A DNA stretch of 64,000 bases. Source: Planctomycetota bacterium (GTDB lineage Bacteria; Planctomycetota; UBA1135; UBA2386). Shown here piece by piece: positions 8,110 to 33,222 of this stretch. Positions within the stretch are counted from its first letter, which is position 1. Each line of letters begins with the position of its first letter. The notes under the pieces were generated by a model. The model did no database searches. It was not told the DNA's origin and saw only the letters and a program-made list of their open reading frames with translations. The stretch lies in the NCBI GenBank assembly GCA_965228735.1, contig OZ245838.1, forward strand, positions 4,032,001 to 4,096,000, in the 5' to 3' direction. The translations under genes were made by a program, and so were the position numbers.

Positions 8110-8137
8110 ACGATCACCGCGATACGAACGCGAGTTC

Positions 8138-8167: not shown

Positions 8168-8172
8168 CGGGA

Positions 8173-9846
8173 ATGGTGACCGAAGCCCCGAAGGACCACG
8201 AAAGCCCCGCGGCAACGGCGGACGGCGACCGCCGCTTCCTCGAGGAAGCGCTGCGCAACGCGCCCGCCGGCGAAGCCGCGGAGATCGAACGCCTCGCCAC
8301 CATGGGGATGATCCCCATGGAACGGGCGTATCAGATCTGGGCGGACATGCTCGGGCTCACGTTCTACGACCTCGACAACCAGCGCACGAACCCGCACGTC
8401 CGGCACCTGATCCCGGTCGACCTCGTCTCACGCCACGAGACGATCCCGATCAGCACCGTCGACGGCGTCCTCGTCGTCGCGCTCAAGAACCCGTTCGACC
8501 TGGCGGCCGTCGACGAGGTCCAGGAGGTCACGGGCATGTCGGTCGAGGTCGCGCTGGCGACGCCCGACGCGATCCGACGCGCGATCGAACGCCTCCACCG
8601 CGGGGCCGCCGGCATCGAGGGCTTGATCCAGAAGCTCGAGAAGGCGGAGATCGACACCGTCGCCGACGGCGACAGTCTGCGACGCCTCGTCGGCCACGAC
8701 GCCGTCGTGCAGCTCGTCGATCACCTGATCGAAGAGAGCCTGCAGGCCCGCGCCAGCGATCTGCACGTCGAGCCGCAGCGCGACCAACTGCGACTGCGGG
8801 TCCGAATCGACGGCGAGATGCAGACGCTCTACGAGCTGCCGCCCGGCCTGCACCGCGCCGTCGTCGCCCGGATCAAGGTCGCCTCGGGCATGGACATCGG
8901 CGAGAGCCGCAAGGCCCAGGACGGCCGCATCGCGGTGTCCGACAACGTCGAGCTGCGCGTGTCCGTGCTGCCGAGCGTGCTCGGCGAGAAAGCCGTGTTG
9001 CGCGTTCTCGACCGCAGCACGGCATCGCACGATCCGGCGAGCCTCGAGATGTCGCCGGCGAACCTCGATCGCTTCCGCCGCGCCTACACCCACCCGACCG
9101 GCATGGTGCTGCTCACCGGCCCGACCGGCTCCGGCAAGACGACCACGCTCTACACGGCGCTCGGCGAACTCAACCGGCCGGAGCGCAACGTCGTGACGGT
9201 CGAGGACCCGGTCGAGTACGAGATGGCCGGCGCGACCCAGGTCCAGGTGGACCCGAAGGCCGACCGCACGTTCGCGAAGGCGCTGCGCAGCATCCTGCGC
9301 CAGGACCCCGACGTCGTGATGGTCGGCGAGATCCGCGACACGGAGACCGCCGCGATCGCGGTGCAGGCAGCGCTCACGGGTCACATGGTGCTCAGCACGC
9401 TGCACACGAACGACGCCCTGGCCGCCGTGCACCGCCTCGACGACATGGACGTCGCGCCCTACCTGCTCGGCCCGGCGTTGCGCGCCGTCGTCGGCCAACG
9501 CCTCGTGCCGCGGATCTGCAAGTCGTGCTCGACCACCGCGGAGCCGATGCCGGGACTGCTCGCGGAGTTCGGTCTCGACCCCGACGGCCGGCACGACGAG
9601 TTCCGCACCGGCAGCGGCTGCGCCACGTGCCGTGGCCGCGGTCGACGCGGCCGCATCGCGATCCACGAGGTGCTCTACATCACCCCGGAGATCGCCGCCG
9701 CGATCTCCCGCAAGGCCGCCCGCGAAGAGGTCCACGCACTCGCCGACGCCGCGGGCTACCGCCCGATGCTCATGGACGGACTCGACAAGGCCCGCGCCGG
9801 GCTCGTGACCCTCGAGGACGTCGCCGCGATCGCGCGCATCCACTGA
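8173..9846 (+). CDS. GspE/PilB-family pilus assembly ATPase
   Basis: ASDLHVEP, QDGRI, Walker A GPTGSGKTTTLY, TVEDPVEY, LRQDPDVVMVGEIRD, TGHMVLSTLHTND, and a tetra-Cys zinc motif (CKSC..CATC). True start lies inside track ORF 7159..9846. Confidence 0.96.
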   Translation: MVTEAPKDHESPAATADGDRRFLEEALRNAPAGEAAEIERLATMGMIPMERAYQIWADMLGLTFYDLDNQRTNPHVRHLIPVDLVSRHETIPISTVDGVLVVALKNPFDLAAVDEVQEVTGMSVEVALATPDAIRRAIERLHRGAAGIEGLIQKLEKAEIDTVADGDSLRRLVGHDAVVQLVDHLIEESLQARASDLHVEPQRDQLRLRVRIDGEMQTLYELPPGLHRAVVARIKVASGMDIGESRKAQDGRIAVSDNVELRVSVLPSVLGEKAVLRVLDRSTASHDPASLEMSPANLDRFRRAYTHPTGMVLLTGPTGSGKTTTLYTALGELNRPERNVVTVEDPVEYEMAGATQVQVDPKADRTFAKALRSILRQDPDVVMVGEIRDTETAAIAVQAALTGHMVLSTLHTNDALAAVHRLDDMDVAPYLLGPALRAVVGQRLVPRICKSCSTTAEPMPGLLAEFGLDPDGRHDEFRTGSGCATCRGRGRRGRIAIHEVLYITPEIAAAISRKAAREEVHALADAAGYRPMLMDGLDKARAGLVTLEDVAAIARIH

Positions 9847-18316: not shown

Positions 18317-20197
18317 CTACGACTGGACCGTGAGCTTCAGCGCGTTGCTGACGACGTACGGCACCGGCGTCGTCGCGGCCGAGTCCGCGAGCACCAACTG
18401 GTAGCAGAGGTTGACGCCGACGAACGTCGGGTTGTTGGGGATCGGCGCGTTGAAGAAGTGCGTGCCGTCCGCGTCGCCGAACGTCACGGCCACGACCACC
18501 GGGTTGGCGATGAACTGCGCGCACGTCGGACCGAGCAGGCCGGCGAGCGGGATCGGCGTCGCCAGCGTCGAGAAGCTGCCCATGACGAACCCGGGCTGGA
18601 ACGGCTCGGCGCGAATGCAGCCGATCTCGAGCGCGGTGTTGCCGACCTGCGGGAAGCCGTTCCAGACCTCCATCACCGGCGTGCGGCCGGTCGCGGCGAG
18701 CGGGCACGGCTGGCCGACGGTCTCGATGCCCGGACCGAACGGACCCGGCATCTCGAGGTCGCCGATGCCGACGAGGCTCGTGAAGTACGGGCCGAAGCTC
18801 GGGTGGAACGGCGGCAGGTAGCCGTTGGGGCCCTGCGGGGTCTCGTAGGGCATGTAGGCCTCGCCCTGATCGATGACGCCGTTGCCGTTGCTGTCGGTCA
18901 TGCTGACGATGCCGTCGTTGGTGCCGCCGTTCTCCCAGACGAAGTTGACGCTGCCGCTCGGCGCCGCCGAGAACGCCCAGGTCGAACCGCTGAGGCTCGC
19001 GACCGGGTTGAGCGACGGGTTGTCGAACGTGATCGGGGCGACACCGCCGTGCGTCTGCGTCGAGACGTTGAAGTAGAGGTTGACCTCGCCCGCGTCGACC
19101 ATCTGGTTGTTGTTGGCGTCGACACAGCGGTAGATCAGACCCGAGATCTTCTCGCCGTTGAGATTGACGTCGCCCTCGGCGTTCGTGCGGTAGCTCGAAC
19201 CGAAGTAGTAGACGTCCTCACCGTTCGGACCGGCGCCCGCGACCACGTCCATGAAGCGCGCGTGGTTGACGCGTGTCGCCGGTGCCGAACCGTCCTGCAC
19301 GTCCCAGTTGGGGAACGTCGCGGTGGTCGCCGAACGCGGATCGTCGAAGTCCGGGTGCACCGGCAGCTCGTTGAGCGCCGAGGCGTTGAAGAACACTTCC
19401 GGAACGGCCGTCCCCGCGTTGTCGGTGAAGCCGTACCACGCATTCATCTCCGGCTGCACCGTGTAGGTGTACTGCACCGGGTTGGTGTTCGGGATCGGCG
19501 CGCCGTCGATCGACAGGCCACGCGCGTAGGCGACGACCTTGCCGCCGGGCAGCACGCGCACCTGGCTCCAATAGTCACGACTGATCGTCACCGGACCGTT
19601 GAGGCCGGGAACCGTGAGGTTCATCGAGCTGTCGACGAACATGCTCTGCTCGCCCGGATCCATCGCGTCACCATCGCCGTTGGCGTCGACCAGCCGGTGG
19701 ATGCCATTCGTGTAGCCCTGCGACGACGGCTGCGAGTTGTCGAGCGCGACGTAGACGCGGGTCTCGGCCGGCGACACGCTCGTGTCGCGGTAGACGCCGA
19801 GCGAGTCAGGCGAGAACAGCGGGCCGCTCGAGCCGCCGCCGAAGCGGAAGAAGATCGTCGCCTCCGACGGGTCGATCACACCATTGTGGTTCTCGTCGGC
19901 GCCGCGCACCACGAGGCCGTCCTCGGAGTCGCAGAAGTAGAACGCCGCGACGCCGTCCTCCCAGACGTAGCGACCGTCCACCATGAAGTTCGTGTTCGCC
20001 TGCGTCGGCAGCACCGTGCAGAACGCGTAGATCTCCTCGGAGGTGATCTGCCCGTCCCGGTTCTGGTCCTTCACGCGGGCCGCCGGGTAGCTGGAATTCG
20101 GCGGGCCGCTGGCGTTGCCGAATCCGAGGGGGAAGACGAAATCCTGCGCGGCCGAAGCCGTGGCGAGGAAGAGAACCGCGATCGAGAGTCGTTTCAT
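18317..20197 (-). CDS. Secreted protein with five Ca-binding DxNx(D/N)G-type loops and a C-terminal beta-sandwich domain
   Basis: Signal peptide MKRLSIAVLFLATASAA/Q; DQNRDGQI, DENHNGVID, DANGDGDA, DANNNQMVD, DSNGNGVID; ends YQLVLAD..VSNALKLTVQS. Confidence 0.8.
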   Translation of the reverse strand: MKRLSIAVLFLATASAAQDFVFPLGFGNASGPPNSSYPAARVKDQNRDGQITSEEIYAFCTVLPTQANTNFMVDGRYVWEDGVAAFYFCDSEDGLVVRGADENHNGVIDPSEATIFFRFGGGSSGPLFSPDSLGVYRDTSVSPAETRVYVALDNSQPSSQGYTNGIHRLVDANGDGDAMDPGEQSMFVDSSMNLTVPGLNGPVTISRDYWSQVRVLPGGKVVAYARGLSIDGAPIPNTNPVQYTYTVQPEMNAWYGFTDNAGTAVPEVFFNASALNELPVHPDFDDPRSATTATFPNWDVQDGSAPATRVNHARFMDVVAGAGPNGEDVYYFGSSYRTNAEGDVNLNGEKISGLIYRCVDANNNQMVDAGEVNLYFNVSTQTHGGVAPITFDNPSLNPVASLSGSTWAFSAAPSGSVNFVWENGGTNDGIVSMTDSNGNGVIDQGEAYMPYETPQGPNGYLPPFHPSFGPYFTSLVGIGDLEMPGPFGPGIETVGQPCPLAATGRTPVMEVWNGFPQVGNTALEIGCIRAEPFQPGFVMGSFSTLATPIPLAGLLGPTCAQFIANPVVVAVTFGDADGTHFFNAPIPNNPTFVGVNLCYQLVLADSAATTPVPYVVSNALKLTVQS

Positions 20198-20310
20198 GTA
20201 TTGGGGTGTAGGGATCCTACGGTGGGCGAACATTGTGCCCGCAACAGTGAAGGAATAGCCAAACCGCGGTGGGGTTCCGTTTTTCACCCCGCTGCGCCAC
20301 GATGCGCCCC

Positions 20311-21009
20311 ATGCCGGGGTCACCCCCTCCACCACCGCCAGAACCCTCGTGGCTTCGCGACGTTCCGCGCGGCCGGGTGCTCGCGTTCGCGCCCCACCCC
20401 GACGACGAGATCGCGGGCCCGGGCGGCTGTCTTGCGCTGCACCGTCGCGCCGGCGACGAGGTGCGCGTCGTCGTCGCCTCGACCGGCGCTGCCGGCGACC
20501 CCGAGGGCCGCTTCGATCCCGCGACGTTCGCCGCCACGCGCGAGGCCGAATCGCGCCAGGGTCTGCGCGAACTCGGCGTCGACGACGTCGTCTACTGGCG
20601 ACTGCCCGACAACTGCGTTCTCGGTGAGCAGGACTACGAGCTCGGTCACCAACTCGCGACCGCGGCGATCACGGAGTGGTCACCGACGATCCTCTACCTG
20701 CCGTGGGAGGCCGAGGGTCACCCCGATCATCACGCCCTGCATCGCATCGTCCTCGAGGCCATGCGACGCGCGCAGTTCGACGGCGATGCGTTCGGCTACG
20801 AGGTGTGGAACGCGATGATCCCCGACGTCGTCGTCGACATCACCGCGGTCGCCGAGCAGAAGCGCCGCGGGATCCGGGCGCATGCGACCCAGACGGCCTA
20901 CGTCGACTTCGAGCACACGATCCTCGGCCTCAACGCCTACCGCGCGATGGTGCACGCGCGCGGTCGCGGCTACTGCGAGGGGCTGCGGCGGATCGCGATC
21001 GGGATGTAG
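20311..21009 (+). CDS. PIG-L/LmbE-family deacetylase
   Basis: APHPDDE, RE.E, GHPDH, HATQ motifs. Confidence 0.92.
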   Translation: MPGSPPPPPPEPSWLRDVPRGRVLAFAPHPDDEIAGPGGCLALHRRAGDEVRVVVASTGAAGDPEGRFDPATFAATREAESRQGLRELGVDDVVYWRLPDNCVLGEQDYELGHQLATAAITEWSPTILYLPWEAEGHPDHHALHRIVLEAMRRAQFDGDAFGYEVWNAMIPDVVVDITAVAEQKRRGIRAHATQTAYVDFEHTILGLNAYRAMVHARGRGYCEGLRRIAIGM

Positions 21010-21024
21010 CCCGACCGATCGGGC

Positions 21025-22005
21025 CTACAAGAACAGTCGATGCTGCTTGAAGCGCGCTTCGACGCCCTCGTCCGCTTCGACGCGCTGCTGCACGAAGCCG
21101 CCACAGAACTCCGCGAGCCGCTGCTGCATCTCGAACAGGCTGCGCGACAGCGGCGCTTCCGGGTCGGTCGCGACGAGCGGCAGCTGGCCGAGGCGGTGCT
21201 GCGTGACGCTCGGATCCTCGACGATCTCGCCGAGGTACTCGAGCTGGACACCGGCGTGCTGCCGCGCGACCTCGGTGAGCTTCTCGAACGCGAGCTTGCC
21301 GCGGCCCGGCTCCGGCACGCGATTCACGACGACGAGGAAGCGCGCATCGGGATCGATCTGCCCGATGCACTTCACGACCGCGTAGGCGTCGACGAGCGCC
21401 GCGATCTCCGGCTGCGTCACGAGCACGATCCAGTCGGCGCACAGCATCGACAGAATCGTCGCGGGCGCGATGCCGGCACCGAGGTCGAGGAACAACGCCT
21501 CCTCGCGCCCTGCCAGTTCGCCGAGCTCACGCGCGAACACCGAGAGCTCCTTGTCCGACATGTTGGCCATGCGCCGCACACCGGACGCGCCCGGCAGCAG
21601 CCGCGGCCCGCACGGCGACGTGCACAGCGCCTGATCGAGCGTCGCCTGCCCCTGCACGAGCTGCTGCAGGGTGATCGTCGGCTTCACGCCGAGCAGCAGG
21701 TGATCGCAGGCGAGCCCGAAATCGCAGTCGACGACGGACGTCCGCTTGCCCGAACGATGGGTCAACACCGCGAGCGAGGTCGCGAGGAACGACTTGCCCG
21801 TGCCACCCTTGCCGCTGGCGACGGCAATCGTGCGGCCCTCGTGGCGCGGCGGCGCGCTCGCACGCAGCCCGCCGAGCAACCGGCCGAACAGACCGCGACC
21901 CCGGGGGCCCAGGCCTCGTCCCGCCTCATTGTGCCGTTGAGCTGCCCGCCCGAGGGCGGCGGCAGGAACCCTGCCCGCTTCGGCGCCGCGATCTGACCGT
22001 TTCAC
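21025..22005 (-). CDS. MinD/ParA-family ATPase, FlhG/FleN-like
   Basis: Deviant Walker A SGKGGTGKS, VDCDFGLA, LLPGASG, DLGAGI, TQPEIAALVDAYAVVK, VVNR. Confidence 0.88.
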   Translation of the reverse strand: MKRSDRGAEAGRVPAAALGRAAQRHNEAGRGLGPRGRGLFGRLLGGLRASAPPRHEGRTIAVASGKGGTGKSFLATSLAVLTHRSGKRTSVVDCDFGLACDHLLLGVKPTITLQQLVQGQATLDQALCTSPCGPRLLPGASGVRRMANMSDKELSVFARELGELAGREEALFLDLGAGIAPATILSMLCADWIVLVTQPEIAALVDAYAVVKCIGQIDPDARFLVVVNRVPEPGRGKLAFEKLTEVARQHAGVQLEYLGEIVEDPSVTQHRLGQLPLVATDPEAPLSRSLFEMQQRLAEFCGGFVQQRVEADEGVEARFKQHRLFL

Positions 22006-22113
22006 GACGTCGCACAGTATCGCCGATCCGGCCGCCGGATGCTCGACCCGTTGGGCCTCCGCGCGACTTTTTGTGCGCGGCGTTGTGCCCGCCCCGCTGC
22101 GGGTGACCCGGCG

Positions 22114-23517
22114 CTACTTCGGTTCTGGCTCCGTCGGTGCTGGCGGCAACAGCTCGCGCGCGTAAGCAACGGGGACGCCGTAGTTGAGCCCCGTGAAGTC
22201 CTTCTGGATCGCGAAGTTGACCGCGATGACCGTGCCGCTCTCGCCGAACACGGGCCCGCCCGAGCCGCCGCTCGTCGTCACGGCGTCATAGGAGATGACG
22301 CGTTCTTCGACGGTGACCCCGCCCTGCGTGATCACCGGATTGACCTGGCCGGCCGCCGCGAGCTCGTCGATCACCTCGGTCATCGTCGCGCGACGCTCCT
22401 GCAACGTCGAGACCAGCGCCTTGTCGGCACGCGCGAGGAGCGCCGCCAGACCCGTGGGATAACCGACGACGATCGCGCGCCGGTAGTTCGTCCGCGTTTC
22501 GGTCGCCAGCGGCAGCACGGGGATCCCCTGCACCGCTTCCTTCTCGACCTGCACGATCGCGACGTCCTGCTCGTCGGTCCGCGCCCGCACGGACGCCGGC
22601 GGGATCGCGATCGGCGCATGGCCGGGAAACGTCGCCGTGAAGCGGATGAACTCGGGCACGGCGCCGCCGGTCAGCAGCGGCTCGAGCCCCGGCATCTCGC
22701 TCCACGGCACCGCGACGTGCCGGTTGGTGACGATGTGCCCGTCGGCCGTCGCGAGGAAGCCCGACCCGGTGTACTCGGCTTCGAACCGGTCACCGTCGCT
22801 GATCTCGAACCACGATCCGCTGGGCATGCGGACCCCGAAGACCCCGTGGATGAGGCACACGCCGCCGCTCCACTCGTCCCGCACCCGGGCGAGCGTCGCG
22901 TTGACCGCGGACAGATCCGCGATCGCCGCCTCGTGTTCGGCCTGGCGCACGCGCAGGGCCTCGAGTTCGGCCCGCGTGTACTCGTCGGCCGTGTGCAGTT
23001 CGGCCGCGACCGGGCGCCCGCCGAGCCAGCCGCCGAACCAACCGGCCAGCAGCGCGAGTCCGGCGACGATGATCGGAAAGCCGATCTTCAGGGTCGGCGT
23101 GGCCTGCGTCAGCAGATCGCGCGTGAGCGCCTGGGTCGCGGCACCCGAACCGCTCGCCCGTTGCACGGCGCGCGCGTCGGCAACCATGCGTCGCACGGGT
23201 TTGCAGACCGCGCCGTCGGGCACGTAGGTCCGGAAGCGCGCGCGCGGACCGTCGACGCCGAACTCGATCTCGTCCTCGTCCCGCAGGATGACCTCGCGCA
23301 CCTGGTTGCCGTTGACGAAGACCTCGCCACCGAGCGCGTGCAGGTGGAAGACGCAGCTGTCCTGTTCCCAGTCGATGCGCGCGTGTTCCGCGCGGACGTT
23401 CCGATGCGGCAGGTAGGCCGTGCTCGTCGGGTCCGAACCGACGGTCACGCGCGGCACGGCGTAGGTCACCGTGCGACCGCGACTCGGTCCAGATAGGTGG
23501 AGCAGTTGGGCCCGCAT
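22114..23517 (-). CDS. FHA-like domain - TM - trypsin-like serine protease
   Basis: ATG 23517. FHA-like segment (VTVGS..HARI..VFVNG..L.DEDEIEFG), TM, then TGSGF, VTNRHV, DVAIV and GGSGGP (catalytic triad). Confidence 0.88.
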   Translation of the reverse strand: MRAQLLHLSGPSRGRTVTYAVPRVTVGSDPTSTAYLPHRNVRAEHARIDWEQDSCVFHLHALGGEVFVNGNQVREVILRDEDEIEFGVDGPRARFRTYVPDGAVCKPVRRMVADARAVQRASGSGAATQALTRDLLTQATPTLKIGFPIIVAGLALLAGWFGGWLGGRPVAAELHTADEYTRAELEALRVRQAEHEAAIADLSAVNATLARVRDEWSGGVCLIHGVFGVRMPSGSWFEISDGDRFEAEYTGSGFLATADGHIVTNRHVAVPWSEMPGLEPLLTGGAVPEFIRFTATFPGHAPIAIPPASVRARTDEQDVAIVQVEKEAVQGIPVLPLATETRTNYRRAIVVGYPTGLAALLARADKALVSTLQERRATMTEVIDELAAAGQVNPVITQGGVTVEERVISYDAVTTSGGSGGPVFGESGTVIAVNFAIQKDFTGLNYGVPVAYARELLPPAPTEPEPK

Positions 23518-23535
23518 TGCTGCACCATAGTCCCG

Positions 23536-24321
23536 ATGCCGGTTCCCGCAAACGCGCCCATTCCGGTCGAGGTCGCCGTCGACTCCGTGGTCGGCGCCCG
23601 GACAGCCGAACGGGCGGGCGCGGCGCGCGTGGAGCTGTGCAGTGCGCTGCTCGAAGGCGGCCTGACGCCGTCGCTCGGGTTGCTCGCCGCGGTTCGGGCG
23701 GCCGTCACGATCCCCGTCTTCGTGATGATCCGGCCGCGCGGCGGCGATTTCCTGTACTCCGACGCCGAGTTCGACGTCTTGCGACGCGACGCTCGCATCG
23801 CGATCGACCACGGCGCCGACGGCGTGGTCTCCGGCATTCTCAGCGCCGATGGCGAACTCGACCGCGAGCGCATGGCCCGACTGCGCGACATCGCGATCGA
23901 GCGCCCCATGACCTGCCATCGCGCGTTCGACCTCGTCGCGGACCCGTTCGCCGCCCTGGCCACGCTCGAGGAACTCGGGATCGATCGCGTCCTGACGTCC
24001 GGGCAGGCGGCCTCGGCACCAGCCGGGCGCGATCGGATCGCACGGCTCGTCGAGGCCGCGGGCAACGGCGTGACGGTCATGGCCGGCGCCGGCGTGCGAG
24101 CCGAGAACGCAGCCGAGCTCGCGCGCACCACCGGCTGCCACGAACTGCACCTGTCGGCGACCGGCTGGCGACCGAGCGCGATGCGTTGCCGCCGCGACGG
24201 CGTGCCGATGGGCACCGCGACGCCGCCCGACGAATACACGCTGCGACAGACCGACGGCGAAGTCGTCGCCGCCGTCGTCCGCGCCGTGGCGTCGGTTGCG
24301 GGTCCCACGAAACCGGACTGA
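23536..24321 (+). CDS. cutC: Copper homeostasis protein CutC
   Basis: RVELCSALLEGGLTPS, MIRPRGGDFLY, HRAFD, RVLTSG, MAGAGV, ELHLS. Confidence 0.95.
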   Translation: MPVPANAPIPVEVAVDSVVGARTAERAGAARVELCSALLEGGLTPSLGLLAAVRAAVTIPVFVMIRPRGGDFLYSDAEFDVLRRDARIAIDHGADGVVSGILSADGELDRERMARLRDIAIERPMTCHRAFDLVADPFAALATLEELGIDRVLTSGQAASAPAGRDRIARLVEAAGNGVTVMAGAGVRAENAAELARTTGCHELHLSATGWRPSAMRCRRDGVPMGTATPPDEYTLRQTDGEVVAAVVRAVASVAGPTKPD

Positions 24322-24337
24322 CGCTATCGTTCTGGCC

Positions 24338-24811
24338 ATGAGTGCTGCGCCTCTGCTCGCGACGATCGACCGACACCTGCAGGCCGACCCGCCGGCCTGG
24401 GACGCGCTGCTCGCCGAGCTGCTGCGCCACTTCGACTGCGTCGTCGCGACGCTCCACGTGCTCGACGACGACAACCTGCTGCGGCTGACCGCCGACCGCG
24501 GCCTGCCGCCGCCCGTGCGTGACAAGGTCGCGTCGGTGCCGATCGGCAAGGGCATGGCGGGCATCGCCGCCGAGCGGCGCGAACCCGTGCAGGTCTGCAA
24601 CCTGCAGACGGACGACAGCGGCGTCGTCCGCCCGGGCGCCAAGCTCACGCAGATGCAGGGTTCGATCGCGCTGCCGATGCTGCTCGACGGCCACCTGCAC
24701 GGCGTCCTCGGCGTCGCCAAACCGGCGGCCTACGAGTTCTCCGCCGACGAGACCGCGCTGCTGATGACGATCGGCGAACGCGCGGCCGCCGCACTCGCGC
24801 GCGGCGACTGA
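24338..24811 (+). CDS. Stand-alone GAF domain protein
   Basis: VPIGKGMAGIAAERREPVQVCNLQTD, GSIALPM..GVLGV. Confidence 0.88.
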   Translation: MSAAPLLATIDRHLQADPPAWDALLAELLRHFDCVVATLHVLDDDNLLRLTADRGLPPPVRDKVASVPIGKGMAGIAAERREPVQVCNLQTDDSGVVRPGAKLTQMQGSIALPMLLDGHLHGVLGVAKPAAYEFSADETALLMTIGERAAAALARGD

Positions 24812-24845
24812 GGCCCGAGCCAACCCCGGTTGTCAGACCGAGCCG

Positions 24846-26168
24846 TCAGACCGAGAATGGGGCGCGTTCCGGCGCGGTGAGGAACGCGTTCGCCGCGTCG
24901 TCGTCGAACCGCAGCGCCTGCGCGTCCCACGCGAGCTTCTCGTTCAGGGCCCCGCGGAACGCCGCGTTCGCGAGCAGGACCGTCTCCGTGAGCGGACCGC
25001 CATAGGCGAACGAGCAGGTCGGCTGCGTGCGTTCGCGGCAACACTGCAGCCACTCCTGGTAGTGCCCGGGCGAGGATGCGATCGACTTGCTCGGCGCCTG
25101 CCACTGCGCCGCGCGCTCGGCCGGCCCGACCACGTGCTTGCCGTAGTCGCTGATGAGCCAACCGTCGTCGCCGATGAACAGCACGCCGTTGCGCCACTCC
25201 TGCAGCCCACGCGATTCGAGTTCGTCGCGCGGCCGGTCCTTGCCGGCGTGCCAGACCACCTCGACCGCGGCGCGATCACCGCGCGCGGCGAACTCGTAGC
25301 GACAATGCAGACCGCGCGGCGCGCAGTGCTCGTGCACCGGGTGCTCGGAACCCGCCTGGACCGTGCGCGGCGCGTCGAGCTCGAGCGCCCAGAACGCGAG
25401 ATCCATGAAGTGGCAGCCCATGTCCGCGGTCGTCCCGCCGCCGAACGCCCAGTAGCGCCGCCAGCCGGCCGGGTGGAAGCCCTGCCGGAACGGCTGCTCC
25501 GCCGCCGGTCCGAGCCAGACGTCGTAGTCGACGTGCTCCGGGACCTTCGCCTCATCCGGCAACGCCGCGGCCGACCAGTCCGTACCGTTCACGAACACGA
25601 TCACCTTGCGCACGGTGCCGACGGCGCCGCCGCGCACGGCCTCGACGACGCGCCGGTAGTTCTCGTTGGCGTGGATCTGGATCCCCATCTGCGTCACGGC
25701 TTCGTGCTCCCGCGCCGCCTCGGTCAGCGCGCGCGCCTGGGCCACCGTGTGCGTGAGCGGCTTCTCGCAGTAGACGTCGAGGCCGTTTCGGATCGCGAGC
25801 ATCGCGGGCAGGTAGTGCGTGTGGTCCGGCGTGCTGATGACGACACCGTCGAGCTCCGAACAGCGCTCCTTCGACGTGAGGACCTCGCGGAAGTCGACGA
25901 CGAGCTTGCTCTTGCCGAACTGCTCACCGGCCTTCTGCAGTCGCTTGCCGTCGATGTCACAGAGGTAGCGAATGTCCTGGTCCTTCACGCCATTGAGGTT
26001 GCCACCGCCGCGCCCGCCGACGCCGATGACCATGAGGCGCAGCGGCTCGTCCACCGCCGGGCGACGGCGCCGACCGCGCGGGTCGGCGACGCGCGCGGCC
26101 GCGCCAACGGAGGCCGCGCCGACCGAGGCAGCAACCGAACAGAGGAAGGAGCGACGCGAGGTGGCCAT
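24846..26168 (-). CDS. Tat-exported Gfo/Idh/MocA oxidoreductase
   Basis: SRRSFL twin-arginine signal, IGVGGRG, STPDHTH, VYCEKPL, QMGIQ, WLGPA, DMGCHFMD. Confidence 0.93.
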   Translation of the reverse strand: MATSRRSFLCSVAASVGAASVGAAARVADPRGRRRRPAVDEPLRLMVIGVGGRGGGNLNGVKDQDIRYLCDIDGKRLQKAGEQFGKSKLVVDFREVLTSKERCSELDGVVISTPDHTHYLPAMLAIRNGLDVYCEKPLTHTVAQARALTEAAREHEAVTQMGIQIHANENYRRVVEAVRGGAVGTVRKVIVFVNGTDWSAAALPDEAKVPEHVDYDVWLGPAAEQPFRQGFHPAGWRRYWAFGGGTTADMGCHFMDLAFWALELDAPRTVQAGSEHPVHEHCAPRGLHCRYEFAARGDRAAVEVVWHAGKDRPRDELESRGLQEWRNGVLFIGDDGWLISDYGKHVVGPAERAAQWQAPSKSIASSPGHYQEWLQCCRERTQPTCSFAYGGPLTETVLLANAAFRGALNEKLAWDAQALRFDDDAANAFLTAPERAPFSV

Positions 26169-26250
26169 GCGCAGATCATGGCATCCGGGCTGGAGAATTG
26201 CTCGCGCAGGCGGGGAGCCCGACCCATCATGCGCGCACGTCCCTGACTGC

Positions 26251-27240
26251 ATGACGCCGACTCCACCAACCGTCGAAGAGGTCCAACGCGCGTGGCAGCG
26301 CTTCGAGGGCCGGATCCGTGAGACCCCCGCGTGGGAGTGGTCCGGATTCCGCGTCGATCGGCTCAAGCCTCCGGGTTCGACGCTGTTCCTCAAACTCGAA
26401 CTGCTGCAGCACACCGGCACGTTCAAGCCGCGCGGCGCGCTCACCGTGATGCTCGACCTCGATCGCGAGCAGCTCGACCGCGGCGTCGTCGGCGTGAGCG
26501 CGGGCAACCACGGCATGGCGCTCGCGTTCGCGGGTCAGCAGCTCGGCTCGCACGCCACCGTGGTGATGCCCACGACCGCCAACCCCGCGCGCATCGCCGC
26601 GTGCCGCGCGCTCGGCGCCGAGGTCGAGTTGCTGCCCGACATCGCGGCCGCGTTCGCGCGCGCCGAAGAGCTCGAACGCGCGGGCCAGACGTTCGTGCAT
26701 CCGTTCGAGGGGCCGAAGACGGCGCTCGGCACGGCGACGCTCGGTCTCGAGTTCCTGCGCCAGGTCGGCAAGCTCGACGCGCTCGTCGTCGCGATCGGCG
26801 GCGGCGGGCTCGCGGCCGGCGTGGCCGCCGTGGTCAAGCAGCTGCAGCCGCGCTGCCACGTCATCGGCGTCGAACCCGAGGGCGCCGACTCGATGAGCCG
26901 GAGCTTCGCCGCCGGCTCGCCGCAGTCGATCGAGGCCGTGCGCACGATCGCCGACAGTCTCGGTGCACCGGCGGCCGAACCGTACTCGTTCGCCCTCTGC
27001 CGCGACCACGTCGACGAGATCGTGAGAGTCAGCGACGACGAGCTGTGCCGCGCCACCGCGCTGCTCTTCGGCGACGCCAAACTCGCGGTCGAACCGGCCG
27101 GCGCTGCGTCGACCGCCGCGATGCTGCAGTGCGGCGACCGACTGCGCGATCGGCGCATCGGCATCATCGTCTGCGGCGCGAACGTCGACCCGGAGACGCA
27201 CGCGGCGTGCATGCGTCGCGGCCAGGACGGCGTCTTCTGA
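26251..27240 (+). CDS. PLP-dependent threonine/serine dehydratase-family protein (no regulatory domain)
   Basis: KLELLQHTGTFKPRGA, SAGNHG, IGGGGL, VEPAGA, CGAN. Confidence 0.92.
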   Translation: MTPTPPTVEEVQRAWQRFEGRIRETPAWEWSGFRVDRLKPPGSTLFLKLELLQHTGTFKPRGALTVMLDLDREQLDRGVVGVSAGNHGMALAFAGQQLGSHATVVMPTTANPARIAACRALGAEVELLPDIAAAFARAEELERAGQTFVHPFEGPKTALGTATLGLEFLRQVGKLDALVVAIGGGGLAAGVAAVVKQLQPRCHVIGVEPEGADSMSRSFAAGSPQSIEAVRTIADSLGAPAAEPYSFALCRDHVDEIVRVSDDELCRATALLFGDAKLAVEPAGAASTAAMLQCGDRLRDRRIGIIVCGANVDPETHAACMRRGQDGVF

Positions 27241-27794
27241 TGCGAAAGCTCACCCTGCTCGGCGTCCTGCTCGCGGCCGGCGGCTTCTGCGGCGGCCTCG
27301 GGTCGTTCGCGGCGCTCGCGTGGTCGGGCGAACGCATCTACGAGATGGAGCTGTCGCCCGGCAGCGGCGGGTCGCGCGACCACGAGATCGCGCTCGATCT
27401 GCGGCCGGACATGAACCCGCTCGCGATGACCGCGACGTCGAGCGACGCCGGCGCCACGGCCAGCATCGCCGTGACGGACGCGAACGGCACCGTCATCTTC
27501 GAGCAGGACCAGGGCGGCAAACCGGGCGGGGAAGCGGCGTGGTTCTTCGCGCCGATCCAGATCATCGCCGCCGGTCGCCACCGCATCGTCTACTCGATCG
27601 ACCGGGACATCGAAGGCAGCATCGACCTGCGCGCGAACGTGTTCGTGTTGACCCCGGCGATCATGTTCTCGTGCCTCGGGCTGATGTTCGTGGGCTTCGG
27701 GCTGCTCGTGCTGACCTCGATCCAACGGGCGATTGCGACGATGAAAGAAGTGCGTCGGATGCAGGCCGGCCCCAACCCGGTGCCCGGCCCGTAG
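27240..27794 (+). CDS. Hypothetical membrane protein (TM - beta domain - TM)
   Basis: ATG 27240 overlaps the TGA of the dehydratase; C-terminal part of track ORF 26331..27794. Confidence 0.7.
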   Translation: MRKLTLLGVLLAAGGFCGGLGSFAALAWSGERIYEMELSPGSGGSRDHEIALDLRPDMNPLAMTATSSDAGATASIAVTDANGTVIFEQDQGGKPGGEAAWFFAPIQIIAAGRHRIVYSIDRDIEGSIDLRANVFVLTPAIMFSCLGLMFVGFGLLVLTSIQRAIATMKEVRRMQAGPNPVPGP

Positions 27795-27886
27795 CTACGA
27801 GCGCGACCCGCATTCGACCACCCGCGGTCCGGGTTTTCTCCGACCCCGCTTCAGCGCTGCCGCACGCCCGTTCGTAGGGACGGCAG

Positions 27887-28510
27887 ATGGCGCGCTCGTC
27901 CGACAGCCACGGCCCGCGGGGTCACGTCGACCCCGTGCTCGCGGCCGAGATTCGCGCCGTGACGAGCGGGGACGCCGCCGCGATCGACGCCTTCTGCCGC
28001 CGCGAACACCCGGCCGTCTATCGCCTGTGTCTCGGCTTCCTCGCCTGCGCGACCGAAGCCGAAGACGCCGCCCAGGACGCGATGCTGCGACTGCTCGACG
28101 TGCTGCCGCAGTACGACGCGGACCGACCGTTCATGACCTGGCGCAACCGCGTCGTGCTCAACCTGTGCCGCGACCGACTGCGCCAGACGGGTCGGCGCCG
28201 CGCGGCCGAGCGCGCCGCCGCCGAACGGGAAGGTGACGACGCTGCTCCGGTGATCGACCCGCTGGCGCGCGCCGAGTTGCGCGCCACGCTGACGCGCGCG
28301 CTCACGGTCCTGCCGCAGCGCGAGCGCGAGGCTTTCGTGCTGCGCGAGCTCGAGGGCAACGGCGCGACGGAGACGGGTCGCGTCATGGGGATCCACGCGA
28401 GCTCGGTGCGTTCCCTCACAACCCTCGCCCGCCGCCGGCTTCGCACCCTGCTCGCCGCGACGCTGGATCCCGAACTGCCGGAGTTGCCTGGAGGCGCACG
28501 CTGTGGCTGA
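27887..28510 (+). CDS. ECF sigma-70 factor
   Basis: EAEDAAQDA, F.TW..RVVLNLCRD.LR, LPQREREAFVLRELEG, SVRS...ARRRLR. Confidence 0.93.
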   Translation: MARSSDSHGPRGHVDPVLAAEIRAVTSGDAAAIDAFCRREHPAVYRLCLGFLACATEAEDAAQDAMLRLLDVLPQYDADRPFMTWRNRVVLNLCRDRLRQTGRRRAAERAAAEREGDDAAPVIDPLARAELRATLTRALTVLPQREREAFVLRELEGNGATETGRVMGIHASSVRSLTTLARRRLRTLLAATLDPELPELPGGARCG

Positions 28511-29075
28511 CCTCGAACGCAACGACCCGGAGCTGGACCTGCTGCGACAGGCGTGGGCCGCGCTCCAGGCCCCGGCATGGGGCGACGACGGCGGCGACGG
28601 CGGCGACGCACTCGACGAGGTCGACAGGTCTGCCTCCGCACCCGATCCGATCGTCACCGACCTTCGTGCCGCGTACCGCGATGTCACGCCGCGCCGTGCG
28701 TTCGTGCCACCGCCGTTCGCGCCGCATCAGGCGCCACCGCGACCCGGGCGCTGGCACACCTACTGCCTGCGCGGCGCCGCGCTGCTAGCGGCGACGATCG
28801 GAGCGTCGTGGCTGCTCACGGTCGCCGACCACCCCGGCATCGGCGCCCCCATCGACCCGCCACCCGTGCGCCGGGCCCACGCCGAGCCACGACCGGTCGC
28901 GCGCGTGCTGCGAACGGACGCTACCGGCACGGAGATCGTGCACGGCCCCGTGCGCCTGATCCTGCTGCCCGCCCCCATCGAATCCCCGAACGAAGAAACC
29001 CGGCTCGACGAGACCGCGACCGCCGAGACCCCGACCGCCGAAACCACTGCCGACCGCACCAACCCGAATCGCTGA
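28503..29075 (+). CDS. Putative membrane anti-sigma factor
   Basis: Overlaps the sigma stop, GGAGG upstream; short cytoplasmic N-terminus, one TM, short periplasmic tail; no ZAS motif seen. Confidence 0.6.
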   Translation: MADLERNDPELDLLRQAWAALQAPAWGDDGGDGGDALDEVDRSASAPDPIVTDLRAAYRDVTPRRAFVPPPFAPHQAPPRPGRWHTYCLRGAALLAATIGASWLLTVADHPGIGAPIDPPPVRRAHAEPRPVARVLRTDATGTEIVHGPVRLILLPAPIESPNEETRLDETATAETPTAETTADRTNPNR

Positions 29076-29085
29076 GGAAACCACC

Positions 29086-30330
29086 ATGTTCGCCATCGCC
29101 GAGATGATCACGAGATCCACGATCCTGCCCGTCGCCGCGGCGCTGTTCGCGACCGGTCTGCTGACCGGCCCGGCACCTGCCCAGGACCCGCTGCGCTCCG
29201 ACGACACCAAGCTCGAGTTCGTGCGCCCTGAGCACGTCGACCTCGTGAGCCTGCAGCGCATGGTGTCGGAGCTGCACGGCCGGACGCTCGCGTTCGAGGA
29301 CGGCCGCACCGTCAAGAACGTGATGGTCGGCAACGGCGCGCTGATCCTGCACGACCGCCCCGAGCGCATCCGAGAGATGCTCGCGACGATCGAGCAGATC
29401 GACGTCGCGCACGAGCCGGTCGCGACCGACTACCAGATCGAGGTCTACTCACCCAAGCACACGGACGTCGGGGCGCTCTGCGCGCTGGCGCAGCGGGTGC
29501 TGGCGCGCCGCGTGCCGGCTCGCCTCGGTGGCGACACCGAGAGCATCGTGCTCGTCGACGGCCAGCTCGTCGTCCGCGAGCTCGAGCCGCACATCGGCGG
29601 CGTCGTCGAGAAGCTACGCGCGCTCGACGAAGCGCTCGCCCAGGGCGCCGACAGCGATCCGGTGCTCGCGATCGAGTACACGCCGCGCGCCCTCAGCCCC
29701 CAGTCGGCGATCCAGGCGCTGCAGCCGATGCTCACCGGGCCGATGGGTCAACGCCAGGTCCAGGTGCGCAACCTCGGCCAGGGCGGACCGCTGATCCTGC
29801 AAGGGCGCAGCAAACAGATCGAGAACGCCAAGGAACTGCTCGAACAACTCGATCGCCCCGCACCACAGGTGATGGTGTCCGGCTACGTGCTCACGGGCAC
29901 GAACGACGACGACGCCAAGGGCAGCAACGCCAACTCGGAGCTCACCGACGTCCTGCAGGAGCTGCTCCCGTACGAGAGCTACAAGATCCAGGCGGCGAGC
30001 GTCGTGCGGGTCGCGGCCCGCCCGAACAGCCAGTTCCAGCTCGACCTCGCGGGTCCCAAGACCGGCATGGCCCAGGCGCGCTACTCGCTGCAGGGCACGA
30101 TCGCGGCCTACGACTCCGACGCCGAGTCCCTGACGTTCAGCAGCCTCGCCGCGATGCGGACGCACCAGGCGATTCCGGGCCGATCGATGTTCCGCACCGC
30201 GGCGACGATCTACGCCGGCGAATACGCGGTCCTCGGCGTCGCGGGCGGTGAACCGCTGTTCGTCGTGCTGCGCCTCAAGCCGGTCAAGGCCGGGCGGCCC
30301 AAGGCGAGCCGCGAACGCAAGTCGAACTGA
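29086..30330 (+). CDS. Exported protein with tandem secretin N-domain (N3/NolW-like) repeats and no recognisable secretin barrel
   Basis: Signal peptide; three repeats ending MLATIEQID, VEKLRALD and LLEQLDRPAPQVMV; then ~150 aa lacking the secretin C-domain motifs. Confidence 0.7.
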   Translation: MFAIAEMITRSTILPVAAALFATGLLTGPAPAQDPLRSDDTKLEFVRPEHVDLVSLQRMVSELHGRTLAFEDGRTVKNVMVGNGALILHDRPERIREMLATIEQIDVAHEPVATDYQIEVYSPKHTDVGALCALAQRVLARRVPARLGGDTESIVLVDGQLVVRELEPHIGGVVEKLRALDEALAQGADSDPVLAIEYTPRALSPQSAIQALQPMLTGPMGQRQVQVRNLGQGGPLILQGRSKQIENAKELLEQLDRPAPQVMVSGYVLTGTNDDDAKGSNANSELTDVLQELLPYESYKIQAASVVRVAARPNSQFQLDLAGPKTGMAQARYSLQGTIAAYDSDAESLTFSSLAAMRTHQAIPGRSMFRTAATIYAGEYAVLGVAGGEPLFVVLRLKPVKAGRPKASRERKSN

Positions 30331-30356
30331 GCGGCGCGGGCCCGGTCGCCGCGGGG

Positions 30357-31442
30357 TTACTCGCCGCAGCTCGCGAGCGTCGGCCCGACCGCGTCTTCGC
30401 GCCGCAACGCGCGACGCTCACCGTCATCGTGGCGGTCGTCGAACACGTCGAGGATGCGTTCGTCGAGCTGCTGCGGCGACCGGACCCGCACGAGCTGCTC
30501 GCGCGCCCAGACCGGATCCGGGTGATACTGCGCGTACTTGATCGCGTGCGTCCGGGTGTGCCCGACGACGAGCTTCTCCTTGCCGTAGAAGTCGCGCGAG
30601 AGTTCCTGGTGCCGCAGGATCGCCCGCCGCTGATCGGCGCACGTCGGCCGCATCGGCACTTCGCCCGCGAGCAGCGCGCGGACCTGGTCGAAGACGAACG
30701 GGTTGCCGATGCAGCCGCGCGCGATCGTCACGCCGTCGACGCCCGTCTCGCGCAGCATGTCGACGACGTCGAACGGCGAGAACAGATCACCGCTGCCGAG
30801 CACCGTGAGGTCGCCGACGTGGCGCTTCACCCGCGTGAGGAACTCCCACCGGCTCGGGCCGACGTACTTCTGACGCACGGTCCGACCGTGCACCGTCACC
30901 GCGGTGATCCCGCGCTCGATCGCGCCCTCGAGGATCGTGAAGAACGCGCGCTCGGCGTCGTCCGTGTCGTCGTACCCGCGCCGCATCTTGACGGTCACCG
31001 CCGCGTCACCCGCGACCGCCTGCACGACCGAATCGATGATCGCGAGCGCCGTCTCGGGGTCCTGCAGCAGCCAGCCGCCGCGCCGCCGACCGAGCACCTT
31101 GTTGACCGGACAGCCGAAGTTGATGTCGACGATGTCGTAGCCCGCGTTCTTCAGTTCGCGCGCGGCCAACCCGAACGTCTCCGGCTGCGACCCCATGAGT
31201 TGCCCGCCGACCGGATGATCGTGCTCGGGCACCGCGAGGATGCGCCGCTGCAGCTTGCCCTTCTGCAGCACCTGCGAATCGAGCACGACCTCGTTGATCG
31301 CATAGGGCGCCCCGTGCTCGCGCGCGACCGTGCGCATCGGCAGATCGGAGTAGCCACTGAGCGCCGCCTGCACCGCGGGCATGCCGATCGCGATATCGCC
31401 GATCGACAAGTCTCTGGCTGCGGCTGCTTGCGAGGTCGTCAC
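30357..31442 (-). CDS. tRNA-dihydrouridine synthase (DusB-like)
   Basis: DINFGCPVNKV, TVKMRRG, VHGRT, GSGD, IARGCIGNP; GTG 31442 chosen as start. Confidence 0.93.
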   Translation of the reverse strand: MTTSQAAAARDLSIGDIAIGMPAVQAALSGYSDLPMRTVAREHGAPYAINEVVLDSQVLQKGKLQRRILAVPEHDHPVGGQLMGSQPETFGLAARELKNAGYDIVDINFGCPVNKVLGRRRGGWLLQDPETALAIIDSVVQAVAGDAAVTVKMRRGYDDTDDAERAFFTILEGAIERGITAVTVHGRTVRQKYVGPSRWEFLTRVKRHVGDLTVLGSGDLFSPFDVVDMLRETGVDGVTIARGCIGNPFVFDQVRALLAGEVPMRPTCADQRRAILRHQELSRDFYGKEKLVVGHTRTHAIKYAQYHPDPVWAREQLVRVRSPQQLDERILDVFDDRHDDGERRALRREDAVGPTLASCGE

Positions 31443-31506
31443 CCGCGCCAGTTTGCCGCCTGACCGCCCAGGCGCCAGGGTCGGCGGCAACCGCGCCGAA
31501 TACCGG

Positions 31507-31755
31507 TCAGGCCAGAACGTCGAGGTTCTCGCCCTTGCCCGGCTCGGCCGCGCCCTGCGGCGGCGAAGCGGGCGGCGGCGCGTCGGCCGAAGCCGCGCGC
31601 GTCGGGGCCGAGCGGGCGGGCGCGCCGCCCTCGATCAGCTGGAGCATCGCCGCGCCGGCTGCGCGTTGCTCGTTGAGCACCTTCGCGAGCAGCGTGATGT
31701 TCGCGGTGCGCACAGCGAGGCCGCCAATGGCCTGGTTGAGGGCTCCGATGTCCAT
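31507..31755 (-). CDS. Small YjfB-like putative motility protein
   Basis: Last 82 aa of track ORF 31507..32913: LLAKVLNEQRAAGAAMLQLI..PGKGENLDVLA matches the YjfB-type pattern; sigma28-like promoter upstream. Confidence 0.7.
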   Translation of the reverse strand: MDIGALNQAIGGLAVRTANITLLAKVLNEQRAAGAAMLQLIEGGAPARSAPTRAASADAPPPASPPQGAAEPGKGENLDVLA

Positions 31756-31762
31756 GCCAGTG

Positions 31763-31791
31763 GCATCGGCGCCGGCTCGGGGTGACTTCAG
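31763..31791 (-). promoter_or_regulatory. sigma28 (FliA)-like promoter
   Basis: Minus strand CTGAAG-N15-GCCGATGC, 7 nt before ATG 31755. Confidence 0.6.
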
Positions 31792-31884
31792 CACTGCGGT
31801 GCACCGCCGATGCCATCGGACCGCCGGACGCCCGCGGGGACCGGATCCCGGGAACGATCGGCCGCGACGCAGTAGAACGGTGCC

Positions 31885-33222
31885 ATGGCCGTCTCCCTCA
31901 CCGCCCGCCTCGGCCGGGCCATCGTGCCGTTCGCGACCGTGCTCGCCATTCCAGCGGCGCTCGTCAGCCAGATCCACGTCGACGCCGGCGCCCAGGCGGG
32001 CGGCAACGGCCAGAGCTGGGGCACGGCCTACGACTCCCTGCAAACGGCGCTCGCCGGCGCCGGCGCGGGTCAGGCCATCTGGGTCGCGGCCGGGACGTAT
32101 CCGGGCGGCTTCGTCGTGCCGGCGAACGTGACCGTGCTCGGCGGCTTCGCGGCCGGCATGCGACGCGCCCACCAGGCGCGCCCGACCGAGCAGGTGACGG
32201 TCCTGACCGGCGGCGGAACGCAGCGCGTGGTGCAGCTCGGCGACGGCGCGGTCCTCGACGGCTTCCTCGTGCGCGACGGCAACGCGGCGTTCCCCGGCGG
32301 TGGCGGCGCGCTGATCGACGGCGTCGCGGCGACGATCCGGCGGTGCGAGTTCACGGCGAACACCAACTCGGGCGGCCGCGGCGCGGCGCTGACCGTCAGG
32401 AACGGCGGCGACGCGACGGTCACGGACTCGGTCTTCCACCACAACTCGGCGAGCGGTCACACGATCGACATCGCAACGCAAGGGCGCGGCACGTTCACCC
32501 ATCTGACCGTCGTGGACAATCCGCACAACGGACTCCACATGCAGCAGCTGACGGTCTGCACGATCCGCGACTCGATCTTCGCGCGCAACGCCGGCCGCGG
32601 CATCTGCGACGTGATGCAGGGCAACCAGCCGACCGTCGAGAACAACCTGTTCTGGGCGAACGTCGTGTCCGCGATGCACGTCGTCGGCAACGAGCTGCAC
32701 ACCGCGAACGCGATCAACGCGCTGAGCTACGCGAGCGGCAACATCATCGCCGATCCGCAGTTCGCGGGCGCAAGCGACTACCGGTTGCAGGCCAGTTCCC
32801 CCGCGATCGACCTCGGCGTGGCGGGGCTCCCGACGCGCCTCGACCTCGGTGGCTTCCCGCGCGCGACGGACGGCGATCTCGACGGCACGCTCCGCACCGA
32901 CGCGGGCGCGCACGAGTTCGACGGTTGCGTGCTCACGATGACCGGCCAGGCCACCGGCGGCAGCACGATCACCCTGGATCTCCAGGCCGCGCCCGCGTTC
33001 GGCGGCATCGCGATGCTGTTCCCCGGCCCGACGACGACCGTCGCGCCGTTCGGCACGCTCTACGGCACGTCACCGATCGTCGCGATCCTCGGCTTCCTGC
33101 CCGGCACCCTGCCCGTCGCGCTGCCGCCGGGCCTCATCGCGGACGTCGTGTTCCAGGGGTTCTGCCTCAGCCCGAACTCGACCGGGAACCTGAGCAACCC
33201 GCTGGCGCTCGCGATTCAATAG
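31885..33222 (+). CDS. Secreted right-handed parallel beta-helix protein with C-terminal beta-sandwich domain
   Basis: Signal peptide; HVDA..GNGQSWGTAYDSLQTAL..IWVAAGTY, GGGA/F..N repeats, DYRLQASSPAIDLG..DAGAHE; ends FQGFCL..LSNPLALAIQ. Confidence 0.82.
   Translation: MAVSLTARLGRAIVPFATVLAIPAALVSQIHVDAGAQAGGNGQSWGTAYDSLQTALAGAGAGQAIWVAAGTYPGGFVVPANVTVLGGFAAGMRRAHQARPTEQVTVLTGGGTQRVVQLGDGAVLDGFLVRDGNAAFPGGGGALIDGVAATIRRCEFTANTNSGGRGAALTVRNGGDATVTDSVFHHNSASGHTIDIATQGRGTFTHLTVVDNPHNGLHMQQLTVCTIRDSIFARNAGRGICDVMQGNQPTVENNLFWANVVSAMHVVGNELHTANAINALSYASGNIIADPQFAGASDYRLQASSPAIDLGVAGLPTRLDLGGFPRATDGDLDGTLRTDAGAHEFDGCVLTMTGQATGGSTITLDLQAAPAFGGIAMLFPGPTTTVAPFGTLYGTSPIVAILGFLPGTLPVALPPGLIADVVFQGFCLSPNSTGNLSNPLALAIQ

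Follow-up and report, generated by a model that had tools for sequence, protein, structure and literature searches.

What is the role of a terminal domain that is shared by secreted proteins with otherwise unrelated contents? This question is raised by a stretch of 64,000 nucleotides (the window; C1:4032001-4096000) from the genome of a Planctomycetota bacterium (G000; 7.19 Mb, 69.4% GC, single contig C1, 93% complete), in which two genes encode proteins, here called A and B, that carry a signal peptide, different passenger regions and similar C-terminal ends. A preliminary description of this DNA had proposed that these ends represent a lineage-specific C-terminal sorting domain. In the present analysis, both were found to belong to a very large family of predicted immunoglobulin-like (Ig-like) domains, and the reading that we favour, at a probability of roughly 40%, is that of a shared folded export tag that the type II secretion system would recognize. 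The domain likely serves as a common address label that directs proteins across the outer membrane, and the type II route is a possible one. The features of the two genes are given below by their positions in the window, with signal peptides called here and throughout by a simple heuristic in which the best start or alternative starts were allowed.

18317..20197, minus strand: protein A, 626 amino acids from ATG, with a Sec signal peptide, a passenger with Ca-binding-type loops and the terminal domain
20147..20197, minus strand: predicted Sec/signal peptidase I (SPI) signal peptide of protein A, 17 amino acids (sequence and heuristic), with Gln as the mature start
18317..18715, minus strand: predicted Ig-like terminal domain of protein A, residues about 495-626, a strong family member (90.6 bits; 78.7 bits when left out)
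31885..33222, plus strand: protein B, 445 amino acids, with a Sec signal peptide, a right-handed beta-helix, a sub-threshold choice-of-anchor Q segment and the terminal domain
31885..31968, plus strand: predicted Sec/SPI signal peptide of protein B, 28 amino acids (sequence and heuristic), with Gln as the mature start
32305..32694, plus strand: beta-helix passenger of protein B, PF13229, residues 141-270 (E 3.3e-12)
32923..33222, plus strand: terminal domain of protein B, residues about 347-445, a shortened, divergent member without the two Cys residues and some of the flap

Much of what the preliminary description had said about these two proteins was borne out: the open reading frames (ORFs) and the quoted C-terminal ends lie where they had been placed, both proteins start with a Sec-type signal peptide, after which comes Gln, as judged from the sequence and the heuristic, and the passengers are unrelated, that of A having six DxNx(D/N)(G/N) loops with a weak EF-hand match and that of B being the PF13229 beta-helix. 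The length of about 100 amino acids assigned to both terminal domains applies to B, while that of A spans about 115-130. Orthologues of protein A are present in three Planctomycetota records. In two orthologues of A, the tail is 56-58% identical compared with 74-78% for the passenger, and in protein B the choice-of-anchor Q segment directly precedes the terminal domain.

The relationship of the two tails was less straightforward. A pairwise BLAST comparison of A and B gave no true alignment, with a best E of 0.021 that was off register, and provides no link between them; the tails are linked because both match one family profile, through which 18 of 96 aligned residues are identical. To build this profile, the last 125 residues of protein A were used as the seed for iterated HMMER searches of six-frame ORFs, which converged at 288 ORFs, followed by refinement on ORF tails with a cut-off of 16 bits and reversed tails as the null. 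At or above this cut-off, the search recovered 361 of the 29,642 ORF tails in the genome, and the reversed tails peaked at 13.1 bits. Protein B scored 19.2 bits before it joined the model and ranks 353rd. A profile built from 326 other tails gave 78.7 bits for A and 18.6 bits for B, a score that none of 2000 shuffles of the B tail reached (maximum 11.0), with the small leak that the alignment guide of this profile had once included B. Additionally, the neighbours of the B domain in the ESM Atlas are unnamed Planctomycetota clusters (score 0.90). By these profile scores, the tail of protein B is a weak but genuine family member, and the earlier claim that A and B share a domain holds at the level of the family, though not of the pair.

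The family extends far beyond the window, within which A and B are its only members. Gene calling with a codon model yielded 5,264 genes, 356 of which carry the domain (hereafter carriers), together accounting for 9.5% of coding residues; a full-length scan of the gene calls found 362 domains in 362 proteins and two copies in none. Thus, counting matches to a profile across the genome, as the preliminary description had suggested, revealed a large family and not a rare one. The distance from the domain to the stop codon was at most 5 residues in 327 of the 362 copies, 6-20 in 9, 21-60 in 13 and greater in 13. Those at 21-60 residues are followed by a short segment and appear to be inserted in the passenger, and about 12 of the 13 copies further away sit directly behind the signal peptide at the N-terminus, so that the expectation of a domain that is always terminal on a signal-peptide-bearing protein describes most copies but not the 26 that end more than 20 residues before the stop codon. 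About a dozen proteins consist of a signal peptide and the domain alone. Carriers are spread along the whole chromosome with mild clustering (157 of 356 have a neighbour within 1.5 kb, compared with 75 expected), and their gene neighbourhoods in this genome revealed no export machine.

In sequence databases, the profile matched 32,138 clusters (50% identity) at E<=0.001, and among the best 150 representatives 149 had the domain at the terminus and none had two copies. The named matches were Planctomycetota or unassigned bacteria, with the genome-wide survey covering Planctomycetota only, and a profile search for longer carriers in a set of 5.8 billion proteins gave 11 hits that were uninformative on taxonomy. 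Our phylum survey comprised 251 Planctomycetota genomes, namely the source genome, 50 others with multiple copies (domain-rich) and 200 domain-poor ones. Matches were obtained in 57 of them (the source genome, the 50 other multi-copy genomes and six with one hit), and the multi-copy state was all-or-none by family. The domain-rich families probably form one clade, which we infer to be the OM190/UBA1135/UBA8108 group named in passages of 10.1101/817700. One domain-rich relative with a streamlined genome, G144, holds 27 copies in the 2.3 Mb examined (0.3 Mb lay outside the comparison). In two domain-poor genomes (G170 and G201), the lone copy is internal, following a MauG-like region and preceding about 320 further residues. 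Taken together, the proposal of a lineage-specific C-terminal sorting domain stands with regard to its restriction to a lineage, its mostly terminal position and its presence on hundreds of unrelated signal-peptide proteins, but not with regard to strict C-terminality, given the roughly 12 N-terminal copies.

Sequence conservation within the family is low, with a median pairwise identity of 20% among 349 copies. The conserved positions include a Gln (93%), a Pro (91%), two Gly (80%), a Ser or Thr (59% and 28%, together 87%) and an Asn (48%). The motif 'Q...SNxLxL' that had first drawn attention to the two tails fits, in its literal form, just 40 of the 356 carriers (and 1 of 4,908 other genes). 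In a Pro-Gly-Cys loop, the Cys varies together with another Cys further upstream (odds ratio 9.2), as would be expected for a periplasmic disulfide. A thioester or covalent role of the Cys-Gln pair was considered and dropped in view of this covariation and of the lack of the Cys in about 40% of copies. AlphaFold, run on 98 copies, gave a confident all-beta model with nine strands for the domain of protein A (predicted local distance difference test score 95.5; predicted template modelling score 0.87), and the predicted fold is an Ig-like sandwich without a specific relative in the PDB. Sequence drifts in this family while the fold is kept.

No characterised module was recognized among these tails. 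Pfam and NCBIfam searches with the 98 copies identified no family and gave only single chance matches, the best PDB sequence match had an E of 0.59, the ESM Atlas returned unnamed Planctomycetota clusters and no named family, and Foldseek with a model gave nothing at E<=0.001. In VIA, the best match was an alpha-2-macroglobulin domain (Z 9.4, root-mean-square deviation 3.4 over 103 aligned residues), followed by many unrelated Ig domains at Z 7-8.7; solved C-terminal domains (CTDs) of the type IX secretion system (T9SS) were absent among the 50 structure-search rows listed. A literature search, which had subscription papers and bioRxiv supplements outside its reach, found no description of the domain, and passages of 10.1101/2023.06.07.544157 mention no Planctomycetes.

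A fold this common, with so many unrelated Ig domains at similar distance, could belong to a generic spacer, folding aid or ligand-binding module spread by shuffling and without any sorting role; passages of PMC9190976, for example, describe the FnIII domain of Xanthomonas CbsA as acting through SecB. The domain is never found in tandem (0 of 362 proteins and 0 of the 150 representatives), unlike spacer Ig domains, and is tightly tied to extracellular composition, and we regard this explanation as a poor one, slightly below the coat and translocon explanations that follow. The domain is also uncharged and hydrophobic (Lys 0.2%), with the near-invariant Gln in a strand that is hydrophobic on both faces. 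Such properties could suit domains that associate among themselves to form a coat or fibre on the cell surface, displaying the passengers, in which the dozen or so proteins made of signal peptide and domain would be plain subunits, and the share of coding capacity devoted to carriers is consistent with this. The would-be subunits are only 20% identical in pairs, however, no single conserved major subunit was seen, and inserted copies would be awkward for strand exchange, making a coat improbable.

The carriers have the appearance of exported proteins. Sec signal peptides were called in 238 of the 356 (321 with alternative starts), compared with 1,115 of 4,208 other genes (1,762 with alternatives); a lipobox was found in 5 carriers, a Tat motif in none and a membrane helix in none of the 356 tails (19-residue hydrophobic window above 1.8). 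The passengers of 333 carriers fell into 112 single-linkage groups, including 83 singletons. Pfam searches with 87 carriers identified Kelch, FG-GAP and Rax2/DUF5122 propellers, M14, S8 and trypsin peptidases, beta-lactamase-like, sulfatase, MauG, LamG and sortilin regions, with no match within the tail, and NCBIfam searches with 56 carriers identified two choice-of-anchor B and two ELWxxDGT proteins. The domain ends 118 of 120 choice-of-anchor B homologues, the other two being records without the full C-terminus.

Composition points in the same direction as passenger type, namely to an extracellular location of the carriers. Lys makes up 0.6% of passenger residues, compared with 2.9% in other signal-peptide proteins, and the median (N+T+S)/(K+E+R) ratio is 2.55 for passengers and 0.68 for 3,709 other proteins. 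Among 57 pairs of paralogs, the member without the domain had the lower ratio in 51 (medians 2.19 for carriers and 0.90 for paralogs). Ratios above 2.0 were found in 235 carriers and in 84 other proteins, 21 of which have a weak domain score and 15 a lipobox; these high-ratio non-carriers consist for the most part of lipoproteins, weak-domain proteins, flagellins and pilins, together with a few proteins that have a different beta-domain at the end. Five extracellular-type non-carriers (C1:891893, 2954019, 5690029, 5970101 and 7038004) share a C-terminal end that we take to resemble a MAM domain, possibly a second terminal module.

Gln at +1 after the signal peptide, called in 202 of the 356 carriers, was rejected as a carrier-specific mark, as 408 of the 4,208 other genes share it. 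As a separate observation, this Gln resembles the Q-rule of Bacteroidetes, which passages of PMC5837995 present as specific to that group, and an M28-family lipoprotein at C1:2062283-2063359, with an orthologue in G144, could be a glutaminyl cyclase.

With regard to the machine that would read such a domain, the preliminary description had pointed, as a speculative possibility, to the type IV filament/secretin system of the window itself (positions 1-9846), which comprises a secretin gene truncated at the edge of the window, PilN/O-like genes, pilins and PilC- and PilB-type genes. Full-length orthologues of this secretin were found in only 7 of the 50 domain-rich genomes; therefore it is not a general exporter, and carriers are spread over the whole chromosome instead of gathering near it. 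The locus is a patchy accessory system, given this same distribution, and its role as the exporter of carriers, which was not upheld, is barely credible. The T9SS was also rejected, as PorV and matches to CTD models are lacking and the domain is not strictly C-terminal. PorV (PF19572) was found neither in the source genome nor in the 50 domain-rich genomes, with 2 weak hits in all 251 and a positive Bacteroides control. SprA (TIGR04189, PF14349) was not found in the source genome, although no control genome matched either. The sole peptidase C25 match there is a 774-residue gene without a signal peptide. Additionally, the N-terminal and inserted copies (26 of 362) argue against a cleaved tail of the T9SS kind.

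A tag for an undescribed, clade-specific outer-membrane translocon is a further explanation. The T9SS is a precedent for a tag with a dedicated machine, the all-or-none distribution by family would be in line with one, and the source genome encodes seven secretins and three Omp85 proteins. No large unassigned beta-barrel was found among 987 reciprocal best hits between this genome and G144 under a signal-peptide filter, which divergent barrels could escape, and we give this explanation long odds, comparable to those of a coat. One operon (C1:6775394-6784599) encodes a secretin lipoprotein with two TPR-like and ExbB/ExbD-like genes, labelled by sequence appearance, in what would be a motor-coupled secretin arrangement; the ExbD-like partners are common to G144.

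Genes of a type II system are more widely distributed among the hosts of the domain. The source genome has a gspD-E-F set at C1:2199409-2204764 and a further part of the gsp core at 799416-802244, so that the gspD/E/F/G core is present; a gspD orthologue was found in 48 of the 50 domain-rich genomes, and G144 has a contiguous gspD-E-F-G-J-like operon. In G144, a sub-threshold TIGR01713 match corresponds to a protein with a signal anchor and a PDZ domain, which is GspC-like. Of 49 domain-rich genomes, 31 had a match to this PDZ protein, compared with 1 of 30 others, and synteny with pyrB, a prepilin peptidase gene, pilT and pilC points to a divergent counterpart in the source genome (C1:2707229-2708521).

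In the favoured reading of a folded export tag, Sec would take the carriers through the inner membrane into the periplasm. There they would fold, and the folded domain would be read by the type II system, likely through the GspC-like PDZ protein, and the whole protein would then be sent across the outer membrane. Recognition would be by shape rather than sequence, and the tag would stay uncleaved. There are precedents for such signals in single proteins. According to passages of PMC12369372, no universal linear signal is common to type II substrates, and the Ig fold of Vibrio VesB carries a type II signal that is PDZ-dependent and graftable onto a periplasmic protein; in passages of PMC9190976, the Fn3 domain of Dickeya PelI binds the PDZ domain of OutC. 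A shared folded tag would explain how more than 100 unrelated passenger families are selected by one system, why domain-less paralogs have a periplasmic look, and how sequence can drift while the fold is kept and the domain functions at either end.

Several observations weigh against the export tag. The gspD orthologue is also found in 76 of the 200 domain-poor genomes and is therefore permissive, not specific, and four domain-poor genomes have one copy of the domain. GspC was not detected with PF11356 in any of the five genomes tried, the GspC-like query had no match in five genomes of the source genome's own family, and the syntenic counterpart in the source genome matches at an E of 0.14 only. 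The identity of GspC would depend on the sub-threshold TIGR01713 match, architecture and synteny, and the contrast of 31/49 with 1/30 is overstated because closer kin match more easily. The location of the carriers is itself deduced from composition, and some lipoprotein paralogs have extracellular composition without the domain. These paralogs and the domain-only proteins would fit an anchor or coat role more easily.

In the anchor explanation, the domain would dock non-covalently on a surface partner after export, replacing a lipid anchor. Evidence for such a swap comes from the lipoprotein G000:2655148 and the non-lipidated carrier G000:1245429, which share a C-terminal part of 585 residues at 57% identity, and several other carrier families have domain-less lipoprotein paralogs. 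N-terminal and inserted copies suit a docking module, and expansions of the GC-type dockerin are confined to other families, with 0-1 match per domain-rich genome and a single match in four of them. Candidate partners were sought among the 987 reciprocal best hits, screened for extracellular composition, and the best is a lipoprotein of about 1,000 amino acids with an Ig-like Big_5 stalk and a YVTN-type beta-propeller (C1:2569111-2572065, with a tandem paralog); a surface glycan or lipid would be another. At E<=1e-12, this lipoprotein was found in 47 of the 50 domain-rich genomes (43, then 4 more), with a best E of 6e-6 among the 200 others. It tracks the domain, unlike two control envelope proteins (48/50 vs 13/30 and 15/50 vs 2/30). 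Among solved structures, the closest to it in fold is a YVTN propeller from an archaeal surface layer (1l0q, E 1.4e-12), and its locus near ubiA/mutL is kept from the source genome to G144.

As the positive genomes are related, the co-occurrence is a lead and not a statistic; they probably form a single clade, in which it amounts to one event and not fifty. Additionally, the lipoprotein has one propeller and no repeated docking sites, the domain varies more in sequence than would be expected of a specific interface of the dockerin kind, and the choice of 112 unrelated passenger groups for export would be left unexplained. An anchor would account better than an export tag for the lipid-anchor swap, the domain-only proteins and the exclusion of GC-type dockerins, and we consider it a serious though tentative alternative. 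Export tag and anchor are not mutually exclusive. A proteome-wide modular type II tag, movable to either end, that would route about 7% of the gene products of a large Planctomycetota clade across the outer membrane and might pass them on to the propeller lipoprotein, is somewhat doubtful in this full form.

The surroundings of the propeller lipoprotein and its relatives are described here in their own right. The tandem pair of Big_5 and propeller lipoproteins (C1:2569111-2575679) has a long Pro-rich insertion, its C-terminal 425 amino acids are 65-84% identical across 120 homologues, and downstream lie a ubiE-like gene, what is presumably a CPBP-family protease gene, ubiX, ubiA and mutL. A lipoprotein family of 870-1,310 amino acids, whose members have Big_5 stalks and a C-terminal region rich in Gly, is encoded at C1:2688070-2708521 and also at 2418873, 2655148, 2657890 and 5165994. 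Four members of this family stand in a row between the prepilin peptidase gene and pyrB, near the GspC-like gene, and Big_5 and GspC-like matches lie on the same contigs in G002, G053, G091, G190 and G233. In the window itself, positions 27887-30330 hold genes for an extracytoplasmic function (ECF) sigma factor, a probable anti-sigma factor and a 414-residue protein with Secretin_N but without a secretin barrel, and positions 56791-62879 those for a vWA protein, a Ser/Thr kinase, an ECF sigma factor and a carboxypeptidase-regulatory-like protein behind fliM/fliN.

Whatever its role, the family is huge, at 32,138 clusters, yet stands outside Pfam and NCBIfam, and the domain is found on the greater part of the soluble exoproteome predicted for a clade of Planctomycetota that is widespread but hardly represented in culture; a hidden Markov model (HMM) would annotate this exoproteome. 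Should the domain be read by the type II system, whose substrates are said to share no universal signal, it would be the first such signal and a graftable one, and its hundreds of natural variants would make substrate recognition testable and offer an export tag for use elsewhere. As an anchor, it would represent a novel module for surface display, for which a candidate receptor can be named.

Among known systems, the PEP-CTERM, GlyGly-CTERM and MYXO-CTERM signals are likewise C-terminal on diverse exported proteins, but they are short motifs and not a folded domain, and the carriers have no membrane helix (0 of 356), basic tail or NCBIfam match of that kind. The GC-type dockerin (NF041540) and dockerin type I of other Planctomycetota are also terminal modules with hundreds of copies per lineage, and the expansions of the two kinds exclude each other across the sampled families. 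Unlike dockerins, the domain is all-beta by its predicted fold, differs in length and lacks the duplicated Ca-binding motif and the terminal Gly-Cys; dockerin HMMs matched none of the 98 tails, and NF041540 had 0 matches in the source genome. The T9SS CTDs (type A TIGR04183/PF18962; FlgD_ig PF13860) are similar in being folded, Ig-like (by prediction for the present domain), single-copy and terminal, in their low sequence identity, in occurring on hundreds of unrelated Sec/SPI proteins with choice-of-anchor B, FG-GAP and peptidase passengers, and in mature N-termini that are often Gln. They differ in that 0 of 98 tails matched TIGR04183, PF18962, TIGR04131 or PF13860 at E<=0.1, and in that the domain is longer (about 115-130 amino acids), has a flap and an optional Cys pair, can be N-terminal or inserted, and occurs in hosts without PorV. 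Altogether, the domain resembles the T9SS CTD and the dockerin in position and reach, yet matches the models of neither. The likeness to the type II signals of VesB and PelI is one of fold and host genes, with sequence homology forming no part of the comparison: an Ig-like fold, as modelled, on a folded protein that would be exported by Sec, in a host with genes for a gspD-type secretin and for a PDZ protein that resembles GspC. VesB and PelI, as described in passages of PMC12369372 and PMC9190976, are single substrates, whereas here one family of domains is found on about 7% of the genes of a genome.

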